Source of the DNA: Candidatus Doudnabacteria bacterium
GTDB lineage: Bacteria > Patescibacteriota > Doudnabacteria > UBA920
Direction of reading: 5' to 3'
NCBI GenBank assembly: GCA_963768175.1
Contig: CAVYGQ010000001.1
Coordinates: forward strand, 100,481 to 164,480
DNA: 64,000 bases
This document shows, in pieces, positions 11,659-36,227 of this stretch (position 1 is the stretch's first letter; each line of letters opens with the position of its first letter). The notes below the pieces were generated by a model, which worked only from the letters and a program-made list of their open reading frames with translations, was not told the origin of the DNA and did no database searches. The position numbers and the translations under genes are program-made.

Positions 11659-13340
11659 TGTTTGAAACAAAAATGATTGTTAATATCCTCCTCATAATAG
11701 ATTTTCTAATGCTGGCGGTTGTTGTCAGCGCTTATATTTACGCCTCACTGCGCGAGCGCAAATATTTGCGCAAAGAAGCGGGGCAGTCACTGGAGCTGCA
11801 GCAAAAAGTTTATCAGGCCGAAGTTTTAAAAGAAATCAGTGAACGTATCGGTTACTCCTTGGACACCAATAAAATTGTGGATATTATTACCAGCTCGTTG
11901 GGCAACCTGCTGGATTACGACGCCGTCTCTTATATGGTTTTGGAAGAAGGCGGCAGGCCCGTGTTTAAATGCCACGTGCAAAATACCGTTAACCATCAAT
12001 TCATAGAAGACGTTAAGCAGAAAATGCTTATGTCCTACGAGGCCATTTTGGACAGCAAAATCCAAAGCAGCGATATGGATGAAAGCATTACCGGTAATAT
12101 TTTGGATGATAACCTAAAAGTTAAAGTGGAATCTTTTTTTAATTTGCCGGTGGTAATTTCCCAAAAATTAGTGGGGCTGATAAACGTGGCTTCCAAAGAG
12201 CGCGGCCGTTTTGGCGAAGAACAAGCGTCTATTTTATACGCCATTACCAACCAGGCGGCTACGGCTGTTTCCAAGCTCCAGGCAGTGCTGCAGAGCGAAA
12301 AAGGCAAACTGGAGGCGGTAATTTATTCTTTGGCCGACGGAGTCATAACTGTAGATTTAAACTACCATCTGGTTGTTTATAACCCGGTGATTAGGGATAT
12401 ACTGGGCATTGCCCAAGGCAAGCCCGTAACCATGTACGATATTGTCGATGGTTTGGCTGGTAAGGTTGATTTAAGGACTAAAATTGAGCAGGCCGTGGCC
12501 GAAGGCAAGGACATAACCTTGCCCGAAGTTATTTTAAGAGATAAAGCTTTGGAGTTGACCATTGCGCCGGTTAAAGACAGCCAGGGGGAGATTATCGCGG
12601 CCAGCGTCGTTTTTCATGACATTACCACGGAAAAGACTTTGGAAAAAACCAGGCAGGAATTTACGGCTATGATGGTGCATGAGCTGCGTGCTCCGCTAAC
12701 GGCTGTCCGTTGGTCTTCGGAATCCATGATCAAAAATTTAAGCCTGGCCTCCGGAGTTGGCCAGGCCAAAATTAAAGACACCATGCTGACCATTGAAACT
12801 GCTTCTAACAACATGCTGGAGCTGGTCAACGACCTTTTGGATGTGGCCAAAATTGAATCCGGAAAGTTTGAACTGAATCTTCAAGAGTATGATTTGGTAG
12901 AGGTTATTAACGATCAGGCCAAAGTTTTCAGGCCACAGGCGGAAATAAAGCATTTGGCGATTAATGTTATTACCCCGCCAAAGTATATGTTAAAATTTGA
13001 CCGCGTCAGGGTTGGCCAGGTGCTGGGCAATCTAATGAGCAACGCCATTAAGTATACCGACAGCGGGCAAATTGATATTAACCTTAACATCAATGCCGAA
13101 GAAAAAATGGCCACGGTTTCCATAAAAGATACCGGCATCGGCGTATCCCGTGAAGACCTGGCGGACCTGTTCAGCAAATTTAAACAGCTAAAAACCGGCG
13201 ACCGGAGCCGCAAAGGCACGGGCCTTGGGCTGGTGGTGAGCAAGGGGATTGTGGAAGCGCACGGTGGGAAAATTTGGGCCGAGTTTGCCGGGGAAAATTT
13301 GGGATCAACCTTTTCTTTTTCTTTGCCTTTGGATAAGTAG
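11658..13340 (+). CDS. Sensor histidine kinase (TM, GAF/PAS-like, HisKA, HATPase_c)
   Basis: The H-box MMVHELRAPLTAV is present, with N, G1 and G2 boxes (GNLMSNAIKYT, DTGIGV, GTGLGL). Confidence 0.85.
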   Translation: MFETKMIVNILLIIDFLMLAVVVSAYIYASLRERKYLRKEAGQSLELQQKVYQAEVLKEISERIGYSLDTNKIVDIITSSLGNLLDYDAVSYMVLEEGGRPVFKCHVQNTVNHQFIEDVKQKMLMSYEAILDSKIQSSDMDESITGNILDDNLKVKVESFFNLPVVISQKLVGLINVASKERGRFGEEQASILYAITNQAATAVSKLQAVLQSEKGKLEAVIYSLADGVITVDLNYHLVVYNPVIRDILGIAQGKPVTMYDIVDGLAGKVDLRTKIEQAVAEGKDITLPEVILRDKALELTIAPVKDSQGEIIAASVVFHDITTEKTLEKTRQEFTAMMVHELRAPLTAVRWSSESMIKNLSLASGVGQAKIKDTMLTIETASNNMLELVNDLLDVAKIESGKFELNLQEYDLVEVINDQAKVFRPQAEIKHLAINVITPPKYMLKFDRVRVGQVLGNLMSNAIKYTDSGQIDINLNINAEEKMATVSIKDTGIGVSREDLADLFSKFKQLKTGDRSRKGTGLGLVVSKGIVEAHGGKIWAEFAGENLGSTFSFSLPLDK

Positions 13341-13541
13341 GTATCGTCATTGCGAGGAGTTAGACGACGAAGCAATCTTTTTTTGGAAAGGTAAAGATTG
13401 CCGCGCAATTTAGGACAAAGCCCCTAAATTGCTCGCAATGACAGGAACGATATTGCCGTTATCGGTTTTCTAAATATTGTGGTATAATAAGGTATCAATA
13501 AATCCCTTCAAATAAGGGTTTAAAATTATTAAATAAAAACT

Positions 13542-13925
13542 ATGACAAAAATTTTATTGGCAGAAGACGACAAGCTTATTTCCAATTCGCTTTGCGATGC
13601 TCTTAAAACCGCAGGATTTGAGCCTGCTGTGGCTTATGACGGCGAAGAGGCTGTGGCTAAGGTCAAGGAAGCCTTGCCTGATTTAATACTTTTGGATATT
13701 ATGATGCCTAAACTAGACGGTATTTCCGTGCTTTGGGAGCTTAAAGCCAATCCTGCCACGGCTAAAATCCCAGTGGTAGTGCTTACCAACATCGGCGATG
13801 TGGAAACTATCAGTAAAATTGTGGAAGCCGGAGCTGTGGATTACTTGCTTAAGTCGGACCAGTCGGTAGATGATATTATCCAAAAAGTAAAAGACGTTTT
13901 AGCAAGGAACGTAAAATTAGCGTAA
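13542..13925 (+). CDS. Response regulator, receiver domain only (CheY-like)
   Basis: The translation has EDD, a phospho-acceptor Asp in LILLDIMMP and the conserved T and K residues. There is no output domain. Confidence 0.85.
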   Translation: MTKILLAEDDKLISNSLCDALKTAGFEPAVAYDGEEAVAKVKEALPDLILLDIMMPKLDGISVLWELKANPATAKIPVVVLTNIGDVETISKIVEAGAVDYLLKSDQSVDDIIQKVKDVLARNVKLA

Positions 13926-14453: not shown

Positions 14454-14956
14454 ATGCCAAAAATAGGCAAGGAATTTTTTGTTATCGCCCATAACATCCG
14501 TTCCCTTTATAACGTCGGCTCAATTTTCCGTACAGCCGACGCTTTTGGAGTCCGCAAGATTTATTTGACCGGCTACACCGGCACGCCGGCAAACCCTGTC
14601 CATAAAAAGAAAATCGGCAAAGTGGCGCTTGGGGCAGAGGAGTGGGTGAGTTGGGAGTATTTCAAATCCGCTCAAGCGGTTATTCGCGTCCTCAAAAAGC
14701 GAAAGTTCACCATCGTCGGTTTGGAAAACAACGTCCCCCCTCTTATTTTAAGAGGGGCCAGGGGGTGATATTATTACCAAAATTCAAGCCCAAATTCCCG
14801 CTAGTCTTAATTTTGGGCGAGGAAGTTTCCGGAATTAACCACGCCTTGATAAAATCCTGCGATCGACTGATTGAAATACCGATGTCGGGCAAAAAAGAAA
14901 GCCTGAACGTTTCCGTGGCTTTTGGCATCGCGGCATACCAGATATCAAAAAAATAA
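14454..14956 (+). pseudogene. SpoU/TrmH-family RNA 2'-O-methyltransferase interrupted by a frameshift at a palindromic insertion
   Basis: The N-terminal half runs in frame 0 to a stop at 14766-14768. The C-terminal half (LVLILGEEVSGINHAL..IPMSGKKESLNVSVAFGIA) continues in the +2 frame. The junction lies in ccccccTCTTATTTTAAGAggggcc, flanked by C6 and G5 homopolymers. Confidence 0.65.
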
Positions 14957-15097
14957 TAAGATTAAGATATACTTGGTTATCGTTGGAAATTTGCAAAAAA
15001 TTGTAAAATTATGGTTTAATAATAAAAAATAGAAAAACAAGCGGTATTTTTCTAAACTACTGTGGATACAGGTTGGGTAAAGTTATAAAAATATTTT

Positions 15098-15128
15098 GAT
15101 ATCCCTTATTTAAGGGATATTTTTATTG
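15098..15128 (+). terminator. Rho-independent terminator-like hairpin
   Basis: gatatcccttatttaagggatatttttatt has a stem followed by a T-run. Confidence 0.5.
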
Positions 15129-15197
15129 TTTGGCGAGGTTTTATGAGCTTTGACTTATGGGGTTTTGTGGTATATAATATATGAGCAATGGTAAAAA

Positions 15198-15222
15198 GTG
15201 GATAAAGGTGGGGGTAAGTGGG
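15198..15222 (+). promoter_or_regulatory. Candidate MraZ operator: three GTGG(G) direct repeats with exact 10-bp phasing
   Basis: GTGGataaagGTGGgggtaaGTGGG lies ~100 bp upstream of mraZ, downstream of a TGgTATATAAT extended -10. MraZ is known to bind tandem GTGGG repeats in the mra promoter. Confidence 0.5.
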
Positions 15223-15324
15223 TATTTCTGTGTATAACTAAATCATAAAACATAAAACATTGAGCAAAAAGCATAGGACAAAATCAGTACTACCAAATGC
15301 TTCATGTTGTATGTCGTATGTTAA

Positions 15325-15765
15325 ATGATTTATATGTTTATCGGCGAATATCAGGCAAGCATAGACGACAAAGGCAGAATCTCCATTCCGGCCAAGTTTC
15401 GCCCGAGTTTGAAATCAAAAATAGTAGTTACCAGGGGTTTAGATAATTCATTGTTTTTGTATAGCATGGACGAATGGAAAAAGCTCGCGACCAAGTTGGC
15501 TAGTCTCCCAATTTCTACCGCTAACACGCGCGCTTTTTCCAGGCTCATGCTGGCAGGCGCCATGGATTGCGACATAGATAAGCAGGGCAGGATAATCTTG
15601 CCGGCTTATCTAAAGGCATTTGCCAAAATCGGCAAAAAAGTTATTGTGGCCGGTTTGTATAACCGCATAGAAATTTGGAGTGAGGAGCTGTGGGTCGCCT
15701 ATAAAGCGCAGACCGAAGCGGCGTCAAATCAGATTGCGGAACAGTTGGGGAGCTTAGGGGTTTAA
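15325..15765 (+). CDS. mraZ: Transcriptional regulator MraZ
   Basis: A duplicated SpoVT/AbrB-like fold with the DxxxR motifs (DDKGRISIP, DKQGRIILP) is present. Confidence 0.9.
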   Translation: MIYMFIGEYQASIDDKGRISIPAKFRPSLKSKIVVTRGLDNSLFLYSMDEWKKLATKLASLPISTANTRAFSRLMLAGAMDCDIDKQGRIILPAYLKAFAKIGKKVIVAGLYNRIEIWSEELWVAYKAQTEAASNQIAEQLGSLGV

Positions 15766-15901
15766 TAAATCCGAAGCACGAAATCCGAAATTCGAAACAA
15801 ATCCTAATATTTAAATTCAAATGTTTTAAACCCAAAGTTTTGAATTTCTGATTTTAAAATTTAGATATTGTTTCGGATTTCGATATTCGGATTTCGAATT
15901 T

Positions 15902-16840
15902 ATGACACCATATGAACACATTCCGGTTTTACTTAATGAGGTTTTGGAATATTTGGACCCTCGTTCCGGTCAAAATATTATCGACGCGACTTTGGGAGGC
16001 GGAGGGTATAGCCGGCAAATTTTAGACAGCATCGGATCGCGGGGAAGATTGTTATCTATTGATTTGGATGGGGACGCGATAAAATTTGCCGAAAATCAAA
16101 AATCAAAAATCAAAAATCAAAATTGGATTTTGGTTCAAGGAAATTTCGCGCACATTAATAAGATCGTAAAGAATCACAAGTTTCCGGCGCCCGACGGAAT
16201 TGTCGCCGACCTCGGGCTGTCTACGTATGAGCTTCAGCATCGCGGTATTAGTTTTCAGGCAAACCAGCCTTTGGATATGCGTTTTGATCTGTCACAGCCG
16301 CTGGACGCGAAATTTATTTTAAATAATTACAACCAAAAAAATTTACAAAAAATATTCAGCGAGTATGGGGAGGAAAAGTTTAGCAGGCAAATAGCGAGAA
16401 AGATTACAGATTACAGATTACAGATTAAAGAAATCAAATACACAAACGATCTTTATCAAATTATTGTAGAGGCGCTGCCCAAGCCGGTTAAACATAGGGT
16501 CGACGACAGCGCACGCAGGATTTTTCAGGCTTTAAGGATAGAAGTCAATCATGAGCTGGAGAATTTGAGGGAATTTTTACCAAAAGCCTTTGACTTACTG
16601 GCTCCGGGCGGCAGGCTGGTTGTGGTGTCTTTCCACTCTTTGGAAGACCGGATTGTTAAGCAATTTTTTACGGGACTGGCAAAAGGCTGTATTTGCCCGC
16701 CGGAATTTCCCCAATGCCTGTGCGGCAAAAATCCTAAAGGCAAAATTTTAACCAAAAAGCCCATCAGTGCTAATTCGCACGAATTAGCACTCAACCCAAA
16801 AAGCAAGCCCGCAAAATTGAGAGCGATAATTAAATTATGA
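15902..16840 (+). CDS. rsmH: 16S rRNA (cytosine1402-N4)-methyltransferase RsmH, with in-frame tandem-repeat insertions
   Basis: The translation has the HIPVLL start and the SAM motifs (DATLGGGGYS, VADLGLS). An in-frame AAAATC x4-5 repeat lies at 16093-16125 and a GATTACA x3.7 repeat at 16402-16427. Confidence 0.9.
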   Translation: MTPYEHIPVLLNEVLEYLDPRSGQNIIDATLGGGGYSRQILDSIGSRGRLLSIDLDGDAIKFAENQKSKIKNQNWILVQGNFAHINKIVKNHKFPAPDGIVADLGLSTYELQHRGISFQANQPLDMRFDLSQPLDAKFILNNYNQKNLQKIFSEYGEEKFSRQIARKITDYRLQIKEIKYTNDLYQIIVEALPKPVKHRVDDSARRIFQALRIEVNHELENLREFLPKAFDLLAPGGRLVVVSFHSLEDRIVKQFFTGLAKGCICPPEFPQCLCGKNPKGKILTKKPISANSHELALNPKSKPAKLRAIIKL

Positions 16841-17016: not shown

Positions 17017-17412
17017 ATGTTAAAAGCTTTAGCTTTAGATAATTTTTGGTCGTCTCTTCCAAGGCGTAAAATTTCCGGCATACATACAATCAAGAAAACC
17101 GAAAGCCGCTACAGCATTTTTAGGTTTTGGTTTTCAATTTCCCTAATTGTTGTAAACGTTTTTTTGCTGATGAGTTATATTTATGGCGTTAATCAGTTCG
17201 CCAATACCGGATACCAGATTGCCGTTTTACAAAAACAGTTAACTAATCTAAACGACAGTAATAAAGCCATTACCTTGCAGGTTTCCGAAGCTTCATCCAT
17301 GGTGCAAATCCAAAATGACTTTTTAAGCGCTAATTTTGTTCCTGCCGGAACGCCAAAGTTTTTGCGGGTTTCGCAGGTTGCGGAAAGACAGTTTTTTGGG
17401 GGTGGTAATTAG
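17017..17412 (+). CDS. ftsL: FtsL-like cell-division protein (septum formation initiator)
   Basis: It lies between rsmH and ftsI and has a single TM helix followed by a coiled-coil (AVLQKQLTNLNDSNKAITLQ). Confidence 0.55.
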   Translation: MLKALALDNFWSSLPRRKISGIHTIKKTESRYSIFRFWFSISLIVVNVFLLMSYIYGVNQFANTGYQIAVLQKQLTNLNDSNKAITLQVSEASSMVQIQNDFLSANFVPAGTPKFLRVSQVAERQFFGGGN

Positions 17413-17564: not shown

Positions 17565-19298
17565 ATGGTCCGCAAAATAGTCCAAAGTTCTTTCAACCGC
17601 AGAAGCAGTTTTTTAACTGCTTTTTTATTGCTGTGTTTTGCCGCCATTGTCTGCAGGCTGTTTTATCTGGAAGTAATCCACGGCGCCCAGGCCAGGCAGG
17701 AAGCCGACTTGCAGCACAGCATCTATCAGAAATTATTTCCCAGCCGCGGGGAAATTAAGCTGGCTGATAAATTTTCCGGGCAGACCGTTCCGGTGGCCAC
17801 CAATACTAAGAGTTATTTGGTTTACGCCGTGCCAAGCGATATTTTAAACGCCAACTTAACCGCTAACAGCCTCGCGTTCGTGCTGGGGCTTGATCCCAAA
17901 GAGATTTTGGCAAAAATTACCGCAACCGACAAAAAATACGTGCCGTTAAAAAAACAGCTTACGGATACGGAGCAGCAAAAAATTAAAGATTTGGCTTTGC
18001 CGGGAATTTATTTTGACTCCGAAGACACGCGCGTCTATCCGCAGAATAATTTGTTAAGCCAGACTTTGGGCTTTGTGGGCTTCAACGCGGCGGGGCAAAA
18101 GGCCGGCCTGTATGGGCTGGAAAGATATTTTGACAAAGACTTGGCCGGCACGCCGGGAGAACTGGTGGCCGAAAAAGATCCCTCGGGAGCGCAAATTTTT
18201 GGCGCGACCATGAATGTTACGCCTGCGCAGGACGGTGTAGACTTAATTTTGACCGTGGACAAGACTATCCAGTTTCAGGTTCAAAGCGTACTGCAGACAA
18301 TGGTTACCAAAAATGGCGCCGACAGCGGCGATGTAATAGTCATGAACCCCAAAACCGGCGCGATTTTGGCCATTGCCAGCTATCCGGATTTTGACCCGAA
18401 TAACTATGGAAAAGTTACGGATCCTTCGGTGTTCAACAACCAGGCCGTGACCGGCACCTATGAGCCCGGTTCCACCTTTAAAGCCATTACTCTGGCCGCG
18501 GCTTTGGATGAAGGGAAAATTACTCCGGATACGACTTATACCGACACCGGCAAGGTTTCGGTGGATAATTATGTAATTAAAAATGCCGAACCGGGCGCGC
18601 GCGGCGTCCAGAGTATGACCCAGGTTTTGGATTGGTCTTTAAATACGGGGGCGATTTTCGCGGAAAATCAGCTAGGCAATCCGGACTTTTTAAAATACGT
18701 GCAAAACTTCGGTTTCGGCAAACTTACCGGAATTGAACTGCCGGAAGCCAAGGGCGACATAAGCGGGCTTAACGGTAACATCGCGGTCAATTATGACACC
18801 GTAAGTTTCGGCCAGGGGATTTTGGTAACTCCTCTGCAAATGCTCCAGGCTTACGGCGCTTTGGCCAACGGCGGGAAAATGATGAGGCCATATATTGTGC
18901 AGTCAAAAATTTATCCCGACGGGACGATAAAAAATACCCAACCGCAGGCGGCCGGACAGGTTGTCTCCCAGCAGACCGCCGCTACCATAGACGCCATGCT
19001 GGTGGACGTGGTGGAAAACGGTTATGGGAAAGAGGCTAAAGTTCCGGGTTATTATATAGCGGGAAAAACAGGAACGGCGCAGGTGGCGCAAAACGGCAAA
19101 TACATAATTAACGACAACATCGGCTCATTCATCGGTTTTGCGCCGGTGGAAAATCCGCAGTTCGTAATGCTAATAAGGGTTGACCATCCGCGCAACGCCA
19201 GCTTTGCCGAAAGCACAACCGTACCGCCCTGGGGGCAGCTGGCGCAGTTTATTTTAAATTATATGCAAATCCCGCCGACAAGGGCGGCGGGGAAATGA
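17565..19298 (+). CDS. ftsI: Peptidoglycan D,D-transpeptidase FtsI / PBP (class B)
   Basis: An N-terminal TM helix and PBP dimerisation domain are followed by a transpeptidase domain with STFK, SxN (SLN) and KTGT motifs. Confidence 0.9.
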   Translation: MVRKIVQSSFNRRSSFLTAFLLLCFAAIVCRLFYLEVIHGAQARQEADLQHSIYQKLFPSRGEIKLADKFSGQTVPVATNTKSYLVYAVPSDILNANLTANSLAFVLGLDPKEILAKITATDKKYVPLKKQLTDTEQQKIKDLALPGIYFDSEDTRVYPQNNLLSQTLGFVGFNAAGQKAGLYGLERYFDKDLAGTPGELVAEKDPSGAQIFGATMNVTPAQDGVDLILTVDKTIQFQVQSVLQTMVTKNGADSGDVIVMNPKTGAILAIASYPDFDPNNYGKVTDPSVFNNQAVTGTYEPGSTFKAITLAAALDEGKITPDTTYTDTGKVSVDNYVIKNAEPGARGVQSMTQVLDWSLNTGAIFAENQLGNPDFLKYVQNFGFGKLTGIELPEAKGDISGLNGNIAVNYDTVSFGQGILVTPLQMLQAYGALANGGKMMRPYIVQSKIYPDGTIKNTQPQAAGQVVSQQTAATIDAMLVDVVENGYGKEAKVPGYYIAGKTGTAQVAQNGKYIINDNIGSFIGFAPVENPQFVMLIRVDHPRNASFAESTTVPPWGQLAQFILNYMQIPPTRAAGK

Positions 19299-21085: not shown

Positions 21086-21706
21086 TTATGCGAACTGTTG
21101 CAACTGTCCTAAAATGGCCTGTTCCAGCTGAACAGTATCATAATGGCGTTGAGGCTTGATGTGTAAAATATTTAACTCTGAGGCTCTCAAAGCCCCGTCT
21201 AAAAAATCATCTCTTAATTTTCTATTGAAATAATTATGGGTATAATCATCCAGTTCAATAACCAAAAGTGGCGACAAATAAACTTTGTCAAAGATTACAA
21301 AATCTACTGTCTTTTTGTTTATCCTGTTAAAGTTGCTGTAAGTGGAATTTGTGCCGTATCTTTCCAGTCCGCCTTGGACTTCAATGATTCGGGATAAGGC
21401 AACCTGTGGCATAATAAAATACCTGTCCTTGATTATTTCCTGTAGCACTCCGAAAAACTTGTATTCGGTTTGGGTCATCAGGTATCGCTTTTTTCTGAAT
21501 GGATAAATTTTATCGTCTTTTTTTACTTCCTGAATTTTTGTATTGCCAGCATTACTAGGCGGTAAAGGTATCTCGGAATAATTTTGCTTTGAGCTTTTTA
21601 TGATGTAACTGGCAAGAATGATTATGATTATTAAACCAAATAAAAAATCCATAAATTTGCTTTTAGAAACACAAAGCCCCGGTCCAGCCGGGCTTTTACA
21701 CCCCAT
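21086..21706 (-). CDS. DUF2726-domain protein (NERD/restriction-endonuclease-like fold), membrane-anchored
   Basis: An N-terminal TM helix precedes the DUF2726 signature (TVDFVIFDKVYLSPLLVIELDDYTH ... RDDFLDGAL...LNILHIK). Confidence 0.55.
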   Translation of the reverse strand: MGCKSPAGPGLCVSKSKFMDFLFGLIIIIILASYIIKSSKQNYSEIPLPPSNAGNTKIQEVKKDDKIYPFRKKRYLMTQTEYKFFGVLQEIIKDRYFIMPQVALSRIIEVQGGLERYGTNSTYSNFNRINKKTVDFVIFDKVYLSPLLVIELDDYTHNYFNRKLRDDFLDGALRASELNILHIKPQRHYDTVQLEQAILGQLQQFA

Positions 21707-22000
21707 ACCCCTTTCGGGATATGACCATAAGACAGTAGCTGAACGCGGGGTTCAGTATGTCTTATGGTTTTACAGCCGTGCCTGATTAAAGGTTTAGGCC
21801 ATTCAGTTGTGATTAAATTATACCAAACTTGACAACAATTTTAAAGGGGTGTATGGTGGAGTTAGTTCATTAAAAAGTTAATAATTAAACGTAAGTTTTA
21901 TTTCTCCTCCCTCGGAGTAAGACAGGGGCTATGCCGTTTTGAACACAAAAACGGTGTGGCGTTTTGACCGCTTGTCTCAGCCATTAGAGGCCTTACAAAA

Positions 22001-35324: not shown

Positions 35325-35552
35325 CAATAACAACAACTATAACTATAACAAACCCAAGATGAGCAAGTTATAGTTATTTTTATTTTATTGTTATAGTTAA
35401 ACTTGTGGATAACTTTAAGGTAAACGTTAGTTTACCCCGTACCAAATTTGGTGGATAACCAAATTTGGTGTTTTTTTATAATTATCAAAAAAAATCAAAA
35501 TGTCCAATAAAATAAGCATTTGATGCGGGGTTTACCTTGTTTTTATTGGTAT

Positions 35553-35585
35553 TTGACACTTGGTGAACGTTCGTATATTGTATAT
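35553..35585 (+). promoter_or_regulatory. lexA promoter (TTGACA -35) with candidate SOS box GGTGAACGTTCGTATATTGTAT
   Basis: TTGACA lies at 35553-35558. The motif shared with the dinB promoter contains the palindromic core GAACGTTC. Confidence 0.5.
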
Positions 35586-35609
35586 ATGTGAGCATTAACG
35601 AACAACAAT

Positions 35610-36227
35610 ATGGAAAAAGATATCACCCAGCGCCAAAAAGAGTTATTAAGCTTTATTACAAAACAGATTCGCGACCATGCTTTGCCTCCAAGCATATCAG
35701 AAATGGCCACTTATTTAAAAGTAAAGTCCAAGAACGGGGTTGCCAAACTTTTAAATGCGCTTGAGGCACAAGGTTATATTCGGACTAGCGGCAAGGCCCG
35801 CGGTATTGAAGTGTTAAATTCTTTGGGGGAAAGTTTGCAAAAGGGCTTGGTGGCGGTGCCGCTGCTCGGCAACATTCAGGCCGGAACCCCGCACTTGGCG
35901 GAAGAAAACATTGAGGAATGGATAAATTTGCCGCAAACCTTAATTAAAAGCCGAAGGGACGTGTTTTTGCTAAAAGTCAGGGGCGACAGCATGATAAACG
36001 CCGGAATTTTTGAAGGAGATTTGGTTATAGTCCGGCCAACCCATGACGTAAGAAATAACGACATTGTAGTGGCTCTGCTCCACGATGAAGCCACGGTCAA
36101 GCGGTTTATCCAAATAAAAAACCGGGCCTATTTGAAAGCCGAAAACCCGGACTACAAAAATATTTACCCCAAAGAAGAATGGATAGTCCAGGGCAAGGTG
36201 GTGGGGGTGATAAGAAATTTAGAGTAG
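35610..36227 (+). CDS. lexA: LexA repressor (S24 peptidase)
   Basis: An N-terminal wHTH is followed by the cleavage-site region and GDSMINAGIFEGDLVIV, with a Ser/Lys dyad. Confidence 0.92.
   Translation: MEKDITQRQKELLSFITKQIRDHALPPSISEMATYLKVKSKNGVAKLLNALEAQGYIRTSGKARGIEVLNSLGESLQKGLVAVPLLGNIQAGTPHLAEENIEEWINLPQTLIKSRRDVFLLKVRGDSMINAGIFEGDLVIVRPTHDVRNNDIVVALLHDEATVKRFIQIKNRAYLKAENPDYKNIYPKEEWIVQGKVVGVIRNLE

Follow-up and report, generated by a model that had tools for sequence, protein, structure and literature searches.

A probable MraZ operator of three 10-bp-phased GTGG boxes at the mraZ promoter of Candidatus Doudnabacteria

The MraZ operator of the E. coli Pmra promoter, reportedly defined by Eraso et al. 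in 2014, is said to consist of three GTGGG/TGGGN direct repeats. Reading Pmra directly, we find TTGACA, a -10 element and then three GTGGG boxes in 10-bp steps, the first of them 7–8 nt past the -10, and in the RefSeq record for E. coli MraZ is described as a transcriptional repressor that binds DNA. As published, MraZ boxes are three (or four) GTG(G/T) units separated by 6-nt spacers and carrying A-rich 5′ flanks (PMC12957436; bioRxiv 10.1101/2022.02.09.479790). MraZ of B. subtilis depends on three GTGG[A/T]G repeats to repress mraZ-mraW-ftsL-pbpB (bioRxiv 10.1101/2022.02.09.479790). The M. genitalium operator consists of four AAAGTGT-N3 units, with cryo-EM structures 9R4J, 9SZ7, and 9SX6; one subunit of the opened octamer recognizes each box through major-groove contacts made by Lys13, Arg15, and Arg86, and in the characterised system transcription starts inside box 1 and deletion of boxes leads to stepwise derepression (PMC12957436). 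Our literature search for MraZ operators or DnaA boxes in Patescibacteria found nothing specific.

Here we describe the mraZ control region of an uncultured member of Candidatus Doudnabacteria (Patescibacteria/CPR), within a 64-kb stretch of DNA that was analysed as a whole (hereafter “the window”). The cluster is ordered mraZ-rsmH-ftsL-PBP, with mraZ as its first gene:

15334–15765, plus strand: mraZ, encoding the presumed cognate repressor (143 aa; two domain matches to Pfam MraZ, E = 2.3e-39)
15902–16840, plus strand: rsmH (mraW), the second gene of the operon (Pfam Methyltransf_5, E = 4e-98)
17017–17412, plus strand: FtsL-like ORF, named only from ORF order and sequence appearance
17565–19298, plus strand: PBP/FtsI-like ORF, named in the same way

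A start codon at 15334 (MFIGEY...) gives MraZ a length of 143 aa, which it shares with nearly all close homologues; the closest of these are 83–95% identical and come from metagenome bins named Candidatus Doudnabacteria or Patescibacteria. Over its full length, the protein aligns with PDB chains from M. pneumoniae and M. genitalium (E = 3e-22 to 5e-19). It contains two MraZ/AbrB-like domains with intact DXXXR motifs (D11-R15 and D82-R86), and its Lys13, Arg15, and Arg86 align with those of M. genitalium MraZ (PDB 9QLR, 9R4J, 9SX6).

Two neighboring regions showed features of their own. The mraZ-rsmH intergenic region (15759–15909) is a single 146-nt hairpin with AAATCCGAA / TTCGGATTT repeats (-41.6 kcal/mol, z = -5.6) that extends from the stop codon of mraZ to the start of rsmH. 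There is no clear sign of further copies of its repeat unit in the window, and the hairpin may serve in processing or attenuation or be a palindromic repeat that was inserted here. Upstream of mraZ, a gene for a SpoU-family RNA methylase (window 14454–14956) is split into two overlapping frames (14454–14768 and 14642–14956) that break at a C/G homopolymer-rich hairpin, CCCCCCTCTTATTTTAAGAGGGGCCAGGGGG (~14737–14767); the split may reflect a frameshift, a pseudogene or an assembly error.

The following elements lie between the methylase gene and the mraZ start codon:

15098–15131, plus strand: terminator-like hairpin and T-run, from a terminator scan, with an equivalent hairpin at the same place in many relatives
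15150–15155, plus strand: -35 hexamer TTGACT of the mraZ promoter, from a promoter scan, with TTG kept in 71–90% of 69 relatives in a fixed register
15157–15170, plus strand: two boxes in the promoter spacer, ATGG at 15157–15160 and GTGG at 15167–15170, 10 bp from each other, the next box following 21 bp downstream
15173–15178, plus strand: -10 hexamer TATAAT, from the promoter scan, conserved among relatives
15188–15191, plus strand: box 0, ATGG, a degenerate fourth in-phase box with a TGG core, recognized by comparison with relatives
15198–15222, plus strand: the three-box array, with GTGG at 15198, 15208, and 15218, 6-nt spacers and A or G before each box; core of the candidate MraZ operator
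15239–15332, plus strand: long imperfect AU-rich hairpin with 36-nt arms in the mraZ leader, detected as an inverted repeat, ending 1 nt before the start codon

The first of these, the hairpin at 15098–15131, presumably ends the upstream transcription unit of the SpoU methylase.

The original prediction, made from the window alone, was that three GTGG boxes with exact 10-bp phasing lie upstream of mraZ. Re-reading the sequence bore this out: positions 15198–15222 are GTGGATAAAGGTGGGGGTAAGTGGG, in which the GTGG step is exactly 10 bp, so that the array consists of at least three direct repeats of the GTG(G/T) / TGGGN type with 6-nt spacers (10-bp period). The pattern GTGG-N6-GTGG-N6-GTGG has a single occurrence in the 64-kb window when both strands are scanned, and none of 100 dinucleotide-preserving shuffles of the window contained it. 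Even the two-box pattern, GTGG-N6-GTGG, has no second instance in the window, which indicates that no other MraZ target is present there.

The array is preceded by a near-consensus sigma-70 promoter, TTGACT-17-TATAAT, with 11 of 12 matches (15150–15178). The first full GTGG begins ~19–20 nt after the -10, and the degenerate ATGG ~9–10 nt after it. Judging from the position of the -10 hexamer, transcription would start at ~15184–15186; the three boxes would then correspond to about +14 to +38. The array lies 112 nt upstream of mraZ. An extended -10 (TGgTATATAAT) had been proposed upstream of the boxes, at ~15160–15172. A promoter does indeed lie upstream of the boxes; the element itself was misplaced, however, and is actually found at 15168–15178. 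Nor is it a canonical extended -10, because its TG sits at -17/-16 relative to the hexamer that is conserved in relatives (TATAAT, 15173–15178) and not at -15/-14, one base before the hexamer. This TG is part of the spacer GTGG at 15167–15170, which is itself conserved. Around the -10, relatives read GTGGAGTATAAT or GTGGGGTATACT. As a side observation, a canonical extended -10 (TGgTATAAT, window 13470–13485) is present at the response-regulator gene at 13542.

To describe conservation, we used 80 related loci from a scan of one genome per GTDB species, with MraZ proteins 67–94% identical to that of the window. Conservation of the boxes in relatives was the test on which the original prediction had been staked, and an exact GTG[G/T]-N6 triple is found upstream of mraZ in 69 of these 80 genomes when 700 nt are considered (66 within 300 nt). 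Among the other 11 loci, nine retain two exact in-phase boxes, usually along with a degenerate in-phase ATGG or TTGG; at two of the 80, the upstream sequence is too short for the array to be scored. All 97 matches to the pattern are upstream of mraZ and on the coding strand, and none falls elsewhere in 469 kb of flanking sequence on either strand. The array is therefore at the same place in relatives and rare elsewhere. The periodicity is also evident in a start-to-start histogram of GTGG spacing that does not presuppose the array pattern: 31 kb of upstream DNA gives maxima at 10, 20, and 30 bp (180, 103, and 46 pairs), whereas 221 kb of downstream control DNA yields 0, 0, and 6 pairs at these distances. 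The shuffles and the conservation together rule out a chance origin of the array.

We then aligned 69 promoters with the last box as the anchor. The three anchoring boxes are invariant by selection in this set, and the information thus comes from the columns around them. The lineage register reads TTGAC..atGGg.....GTGG..TATAAT.........[A/G]TGG-N6-GTGG-N6-GTGG-N6-GTGG-N8-GTGGATAAct, with the -35, the -10 and the fourth box held in constant register. The base preceding the array boxes is A in 93–100% of promoters, giving the unit AAAGTGG. At the offset of box 0, 86% of the 69 relatives carry [A/G]TGG and 41% a full GTGG. Columns outside the named elements fall below 0.5 bit, so the conservation reflects more than recent shared ancestry. 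Three substitutions set the window apart from the lineage consensus (A15207G, A15214G, and G15233T), as does a fourth box that reads ATGG instead of GTGG.

Compared with E. coli Pmra, the window has the same three direct GTGG(G) repeats in an exact 10-bp step right after the -10 of the cluster's promoter (the cluster being mraZ-rsmH-ftsL-ftsI in E. coli). The two differ in that the E. coli array begins 7–8 nt past the -10, whereas here the first GTGG is at 19 nt and the degenerate ATGG at 9 nt; in that the E. coli array ends 20 nt before the ATG, in place of a 112-nt structured leader; and in the promoter spacer, which lacks GTGG in E. coli. The B. subtilis repeats share the GTGG core, the three copies and the 10-bp period, and the triple is unique in the B. 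subtilis genome, as it is here in the window. With M. genitalium the lineage shares 10-bp units with an A-rich 5′ flank, the Mollicutes unit AAAGTG[T/G] resembling the AAAGTGG consensus of Doudnabacteria. Lys13, Arg15, and Arg86 are common to both proteins, and transcription starts at or near the first box in M. genitalium and, by our estimate from the -10, here. M. genitalium has four boxes, as do the 41% of Doudnabacteria relatives with four perfect ones, but its core is GTGT as opposed to GTGG, and in the window the first of the four is ATGG.

Taken together, conservation, the published box definition, position relative to the -10 and the MraZ contact residues all agree with the proposal that the array is a candidate MraZ operator. 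We consider it highly probable that the boxes are MraZ-binding repeats of the mraZ/dcw promoter through which mraZ-rsmH-ftsL-PBP is repressed in Candidatus Doudnabacteria. Both binding and the sign of regulation are predicted here from homology of the protein, the site and its position. Under the proposed mechanism, subunits of an opened MraZ ring would sit in the major groove, one at every helical turn, each with its beta-sheet “cradle” (Lys13, Arg15, Arg86) inserted, and the TGG cores at 15189, 15199, 15209, and 15219 would be occupied cooperatively. Including box 0, the array would cover roughly +4 to +38 of the transcript, so that bound MraZ should block RNA polymerase binding or promoter escape, resulting in negative autoregulation of mraZ-rsmH-ftsL-PBP. 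The sign is not guaranteed, because a passage in PMC12957436, citing other work, reports M. gallisepticum MraZ as an activator, with an effect seen on overexpression. MraZ could in principle bind these boxes and activate the promoter in this lineage as well; we regard this as improbable, since the array follows the -10 and overlaps the expected start, the classical repressor position as in E. coli, and since a promoter with 11 of 12 consensus matches should not need an activator.

A role of the G-rich repeat in nucleic acid structure is still less probable. For S. aureus, a G-quadruplex has been reported in a G-rich stretch that follows PmraZ, and G4-forming motifs are claimed to be conserved in mraZ promoters (PMC11796246); the tract in the window has G-runs of 2, 2, 5, and 3. 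On this basis, the repeat might act mainly as a G-quadruplex, in non-template DNA or in the RNA of the 5′ UTR, and impede transcription or translation independently of MraZ. However, what is conserved among relatives is the T within GTGG, the A or AA before the boxes and the 10-bp step, none of which a G-quadruplex needs, and not the length of the G-runs. In three of the four tracts, most relatives have runs of no more than two Gs, which would allow a weak two-tetrad quadruplex at best, and folding of the leader RNA gives the tract no special role. The mraZ leader as a whole folds with z = -2.2; leaders of relatives range from 29 to 357 nt in length, and 48% of them have z < -2 compared with shuffles. 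A search of 14950–15400 for known RNA families (Rfam, E ≤ 1) returned only a spurious lncRNA match. Elsewhere in the window, the Rfam family LOOT RNA (RF03000) matches a stretch of low GC on the minus strand (21690–21800) with 70.3 bits, which exceeds its gathering score.

The candidate MraZ operator may extend beyond the array. In the promoter spacer, G15170 is invariant across the 69 promoters, GTG is kept in 74–78% and TGG at 15158–60 in 71–90%. A GTGG 2 nt before the -10 occurs in 44 of 46 mraZ promoters versus 1 of the 17 remaining strict promoters at the loci of relatives, and is absent from the four other strong promoters of the window; these counts rule out a general promoter feature. 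The spacer GTGG and TGG are 21 and 31 bp from the next box and thus on the same face of the DNA, which suggests that the operator may straddle the -10. Hence, the spacer ATGG and GTGG are possibly extra MraZ contacts over the core promoter. Further upstream, 15062–15083 reads GTGGATACAGGTTGGGTAAAGT and is 82% identical to 15198–15219 of the operator, which is 136 bp downstream. We rejected this segment as a second operator: relatives keep its first GTGGATA and not its array, and it may be a decayed duplicate of the operator or a product of chance.

The mraZ promoter is also bracketed by two elements of a different type, a further copy of which lies upstream of lexA:

15061–15069, plus strand: distal TGTGGATAC element, with 8 of the 9 bases of the DnaA-box consensus TGTGNATAA, located after the upstream gene and before that gene's terminator hairpin
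15229–15239, plus strand: proximal TGTGTATAACT element, 12 bp from the last box and out of step with the array; DnaA consensus TTATNCACA on the minus strand
35404–35414: copy of TGTGGATAACT upstream of lexA, the same 11-mer as in the elements flanking the mraZ promoter
35610–36227: lexA (Pfam LexA)

The two TGTGGATA(ACT) elements (15061 and 15229) are ~168 bp, or 16 helical turns, apart. Unlike the array boxes, they are preceded by T and not A, and they have a conserved ATAAC tail. A distal element of the GTGGA[T/C]A type (consensus TGTGGATA) is present in 45 of 70 promoters, 133–169 nt upstream of the last box (~157 bp in the window), and most of the remaining promoters carry TGTGGATTA or GGGGATAAC at this position. 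Across 469 kb, 66 of the 89 copies of TGTGGATA fall within 600 nt upstream of mraZ. At the proximal position, the minus strand of 15229–15237 is TTATACACA, a full 9-mer fit to TTATNCACA. The proximal GTGGATAA is conserved in 67–94% of relatives per position, and is inverted to TTATCCACAG in one sublineage (loci L069–L072 and L074).

The consensus TGTGGATAACT is that of a high-affinity DnaA box: it agrees with E. coli oriC R4 and its flanks at 11 of 11 positions and with R1 at 10 of 11, the reference being E. coli, whose DnaA box may not be that of Doudnabacteria. In contrast to the DnaA boxes of E. coli oriC, the elements described here are single sites, are not at an origin and often stand right before a terminator-like hairpin. 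A replication origin at 15 kb or 35 kb was ruled out: there is no GC-skew switch near either position, and no dnaA in the window or in the 161 mraZ, lexA, and E. coli loci examined.

The most probable reading of the array as an MraZ operator can be set against one in which it is a cluster of DnaA boxes, on which DnaA rather than MraZ would oligomerize from flanking high-affinity sites of the TGTGGATAA type and repress the operon. Passages in PMC2533591 and PMC8203912, both citing Goranov 2005, describe the B. subtilis yllB(mraZ)-ftsL operon as a target that DnaA binds and controls negatively. This is the least probable of the alternatives: although box 1 and its flank, AGTGGATAA (15197–15205), fit a DnaA box at 8 of 9 positions and TGTGTATAA at 15229–15237 fits TTATNCACA exactly, boxes 2 and 3 fit the DnaA consensus at only 3–5 of its 8 specified positions, the ATAA flank of box 1 is not kept (relatives read GTGG[A/T]T.AAA), the array boxes are preceded by A in 93–100% of relatives and the TGTGGATA elements by T, and direct GTGG repeats in 10-bp steps upstream of mraZ are the published signature of MraZ.

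The flanking elements themselves recur at lexA. Among 46 Doudnabacteria metagenome loci with LexA at least 69% identical and adequate upstream sequence, 42 have TGTGGATAACT upstream of lexA, always in the same orientation (L082–L131); three carry it further upstream and one has the GGGGATAAC variant. In many of these loci, TGTGGATAACT lies a few nt before a terminator-like hairpin that is followed by the lexA promoter. The window contains 30 copies of TGTGGATAACT with at most two mismatches, against 12.1 ± 3.4 expected, and in three relatives an exact TGTGGATAA[C/G]TTT is found upstream of the homologue of the response-regulator gene at 13542. A second copy upstream of lexA in the window, GGTGGATAACC at 35450–35460, falls in the loop of a hairpin (35440–35470). 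A TTTGGATAAGT element is located at 13328, at the end of the histidine-kinase gene. The lexA promoter (35555–35600; L084–L131) shows a conserved TTGACA-N3-GGTGAACG(A/T)(A/T)CGTATA over its spacer and -10; this looks like the LexA (SOS) box of the lineage, of the GAAC/GTAC...GT(T/A)C type. The TGTGGATA(AC) elements could be DnaA boxes, sites for another factor or RNA elements linked to terminators, and a role at the level of RNA or of termination is kept in view because TGTGGATAACT is so often coupled to hairpins.

A wider reading, which we offer tentatively and consider somewhat doubtful, is that of a composite mraZ control region. It would comprise six or seven TGG boxes on the same face of the DNA (15157, 15167, 15188, 15198, 15208, and 15218), and the DnaA-box-like brackets would mark a small regulon of DnaA, of another factor or of a terminator-linked RNA. 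Since the boxes would straddle the -10, an opened ring of MraZ bound to them would wrap around the entire core promoter. If so, replication status would be coupled to division and to the SOS repressor in a minimal-genome lineage of the Candidate Phyla Radiation, and, were the factor DnaA, copies of TGTGGATAAC would be expected to cluster in the dnaA-dnaN / oriC regions of Doudnabacteria.

As judged by comparison of sequences, the operator appears to be of a kind already known, a textbook MraZ operator, in a lineage that is new for it; only its extended architecture and the shared TGTGGATAACT element go beyond the systems described so far. The MraZ-operator pair would thus have persisted with practically no change in the Candidate Phyla Radiation, including the boxes, their 10-bp phasing, the position at the start site and the contact residues, which supports MraZ autoregulation of the dcw cluster as an ancient and near-universal bacterial circuit. 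The ~70 natural variants of the operator, with three or four boxes and either ATGG or GTGG as the first, could inform models of cooperative MraZ binding. While the operator itself is unsurprising, the occurrence of TGTGGATAACT in the control regions of both mraZ and lexA may be the more useful lead, as a testable handle on a link between replication, DNA damage and division in organisms with very few transcription factors.
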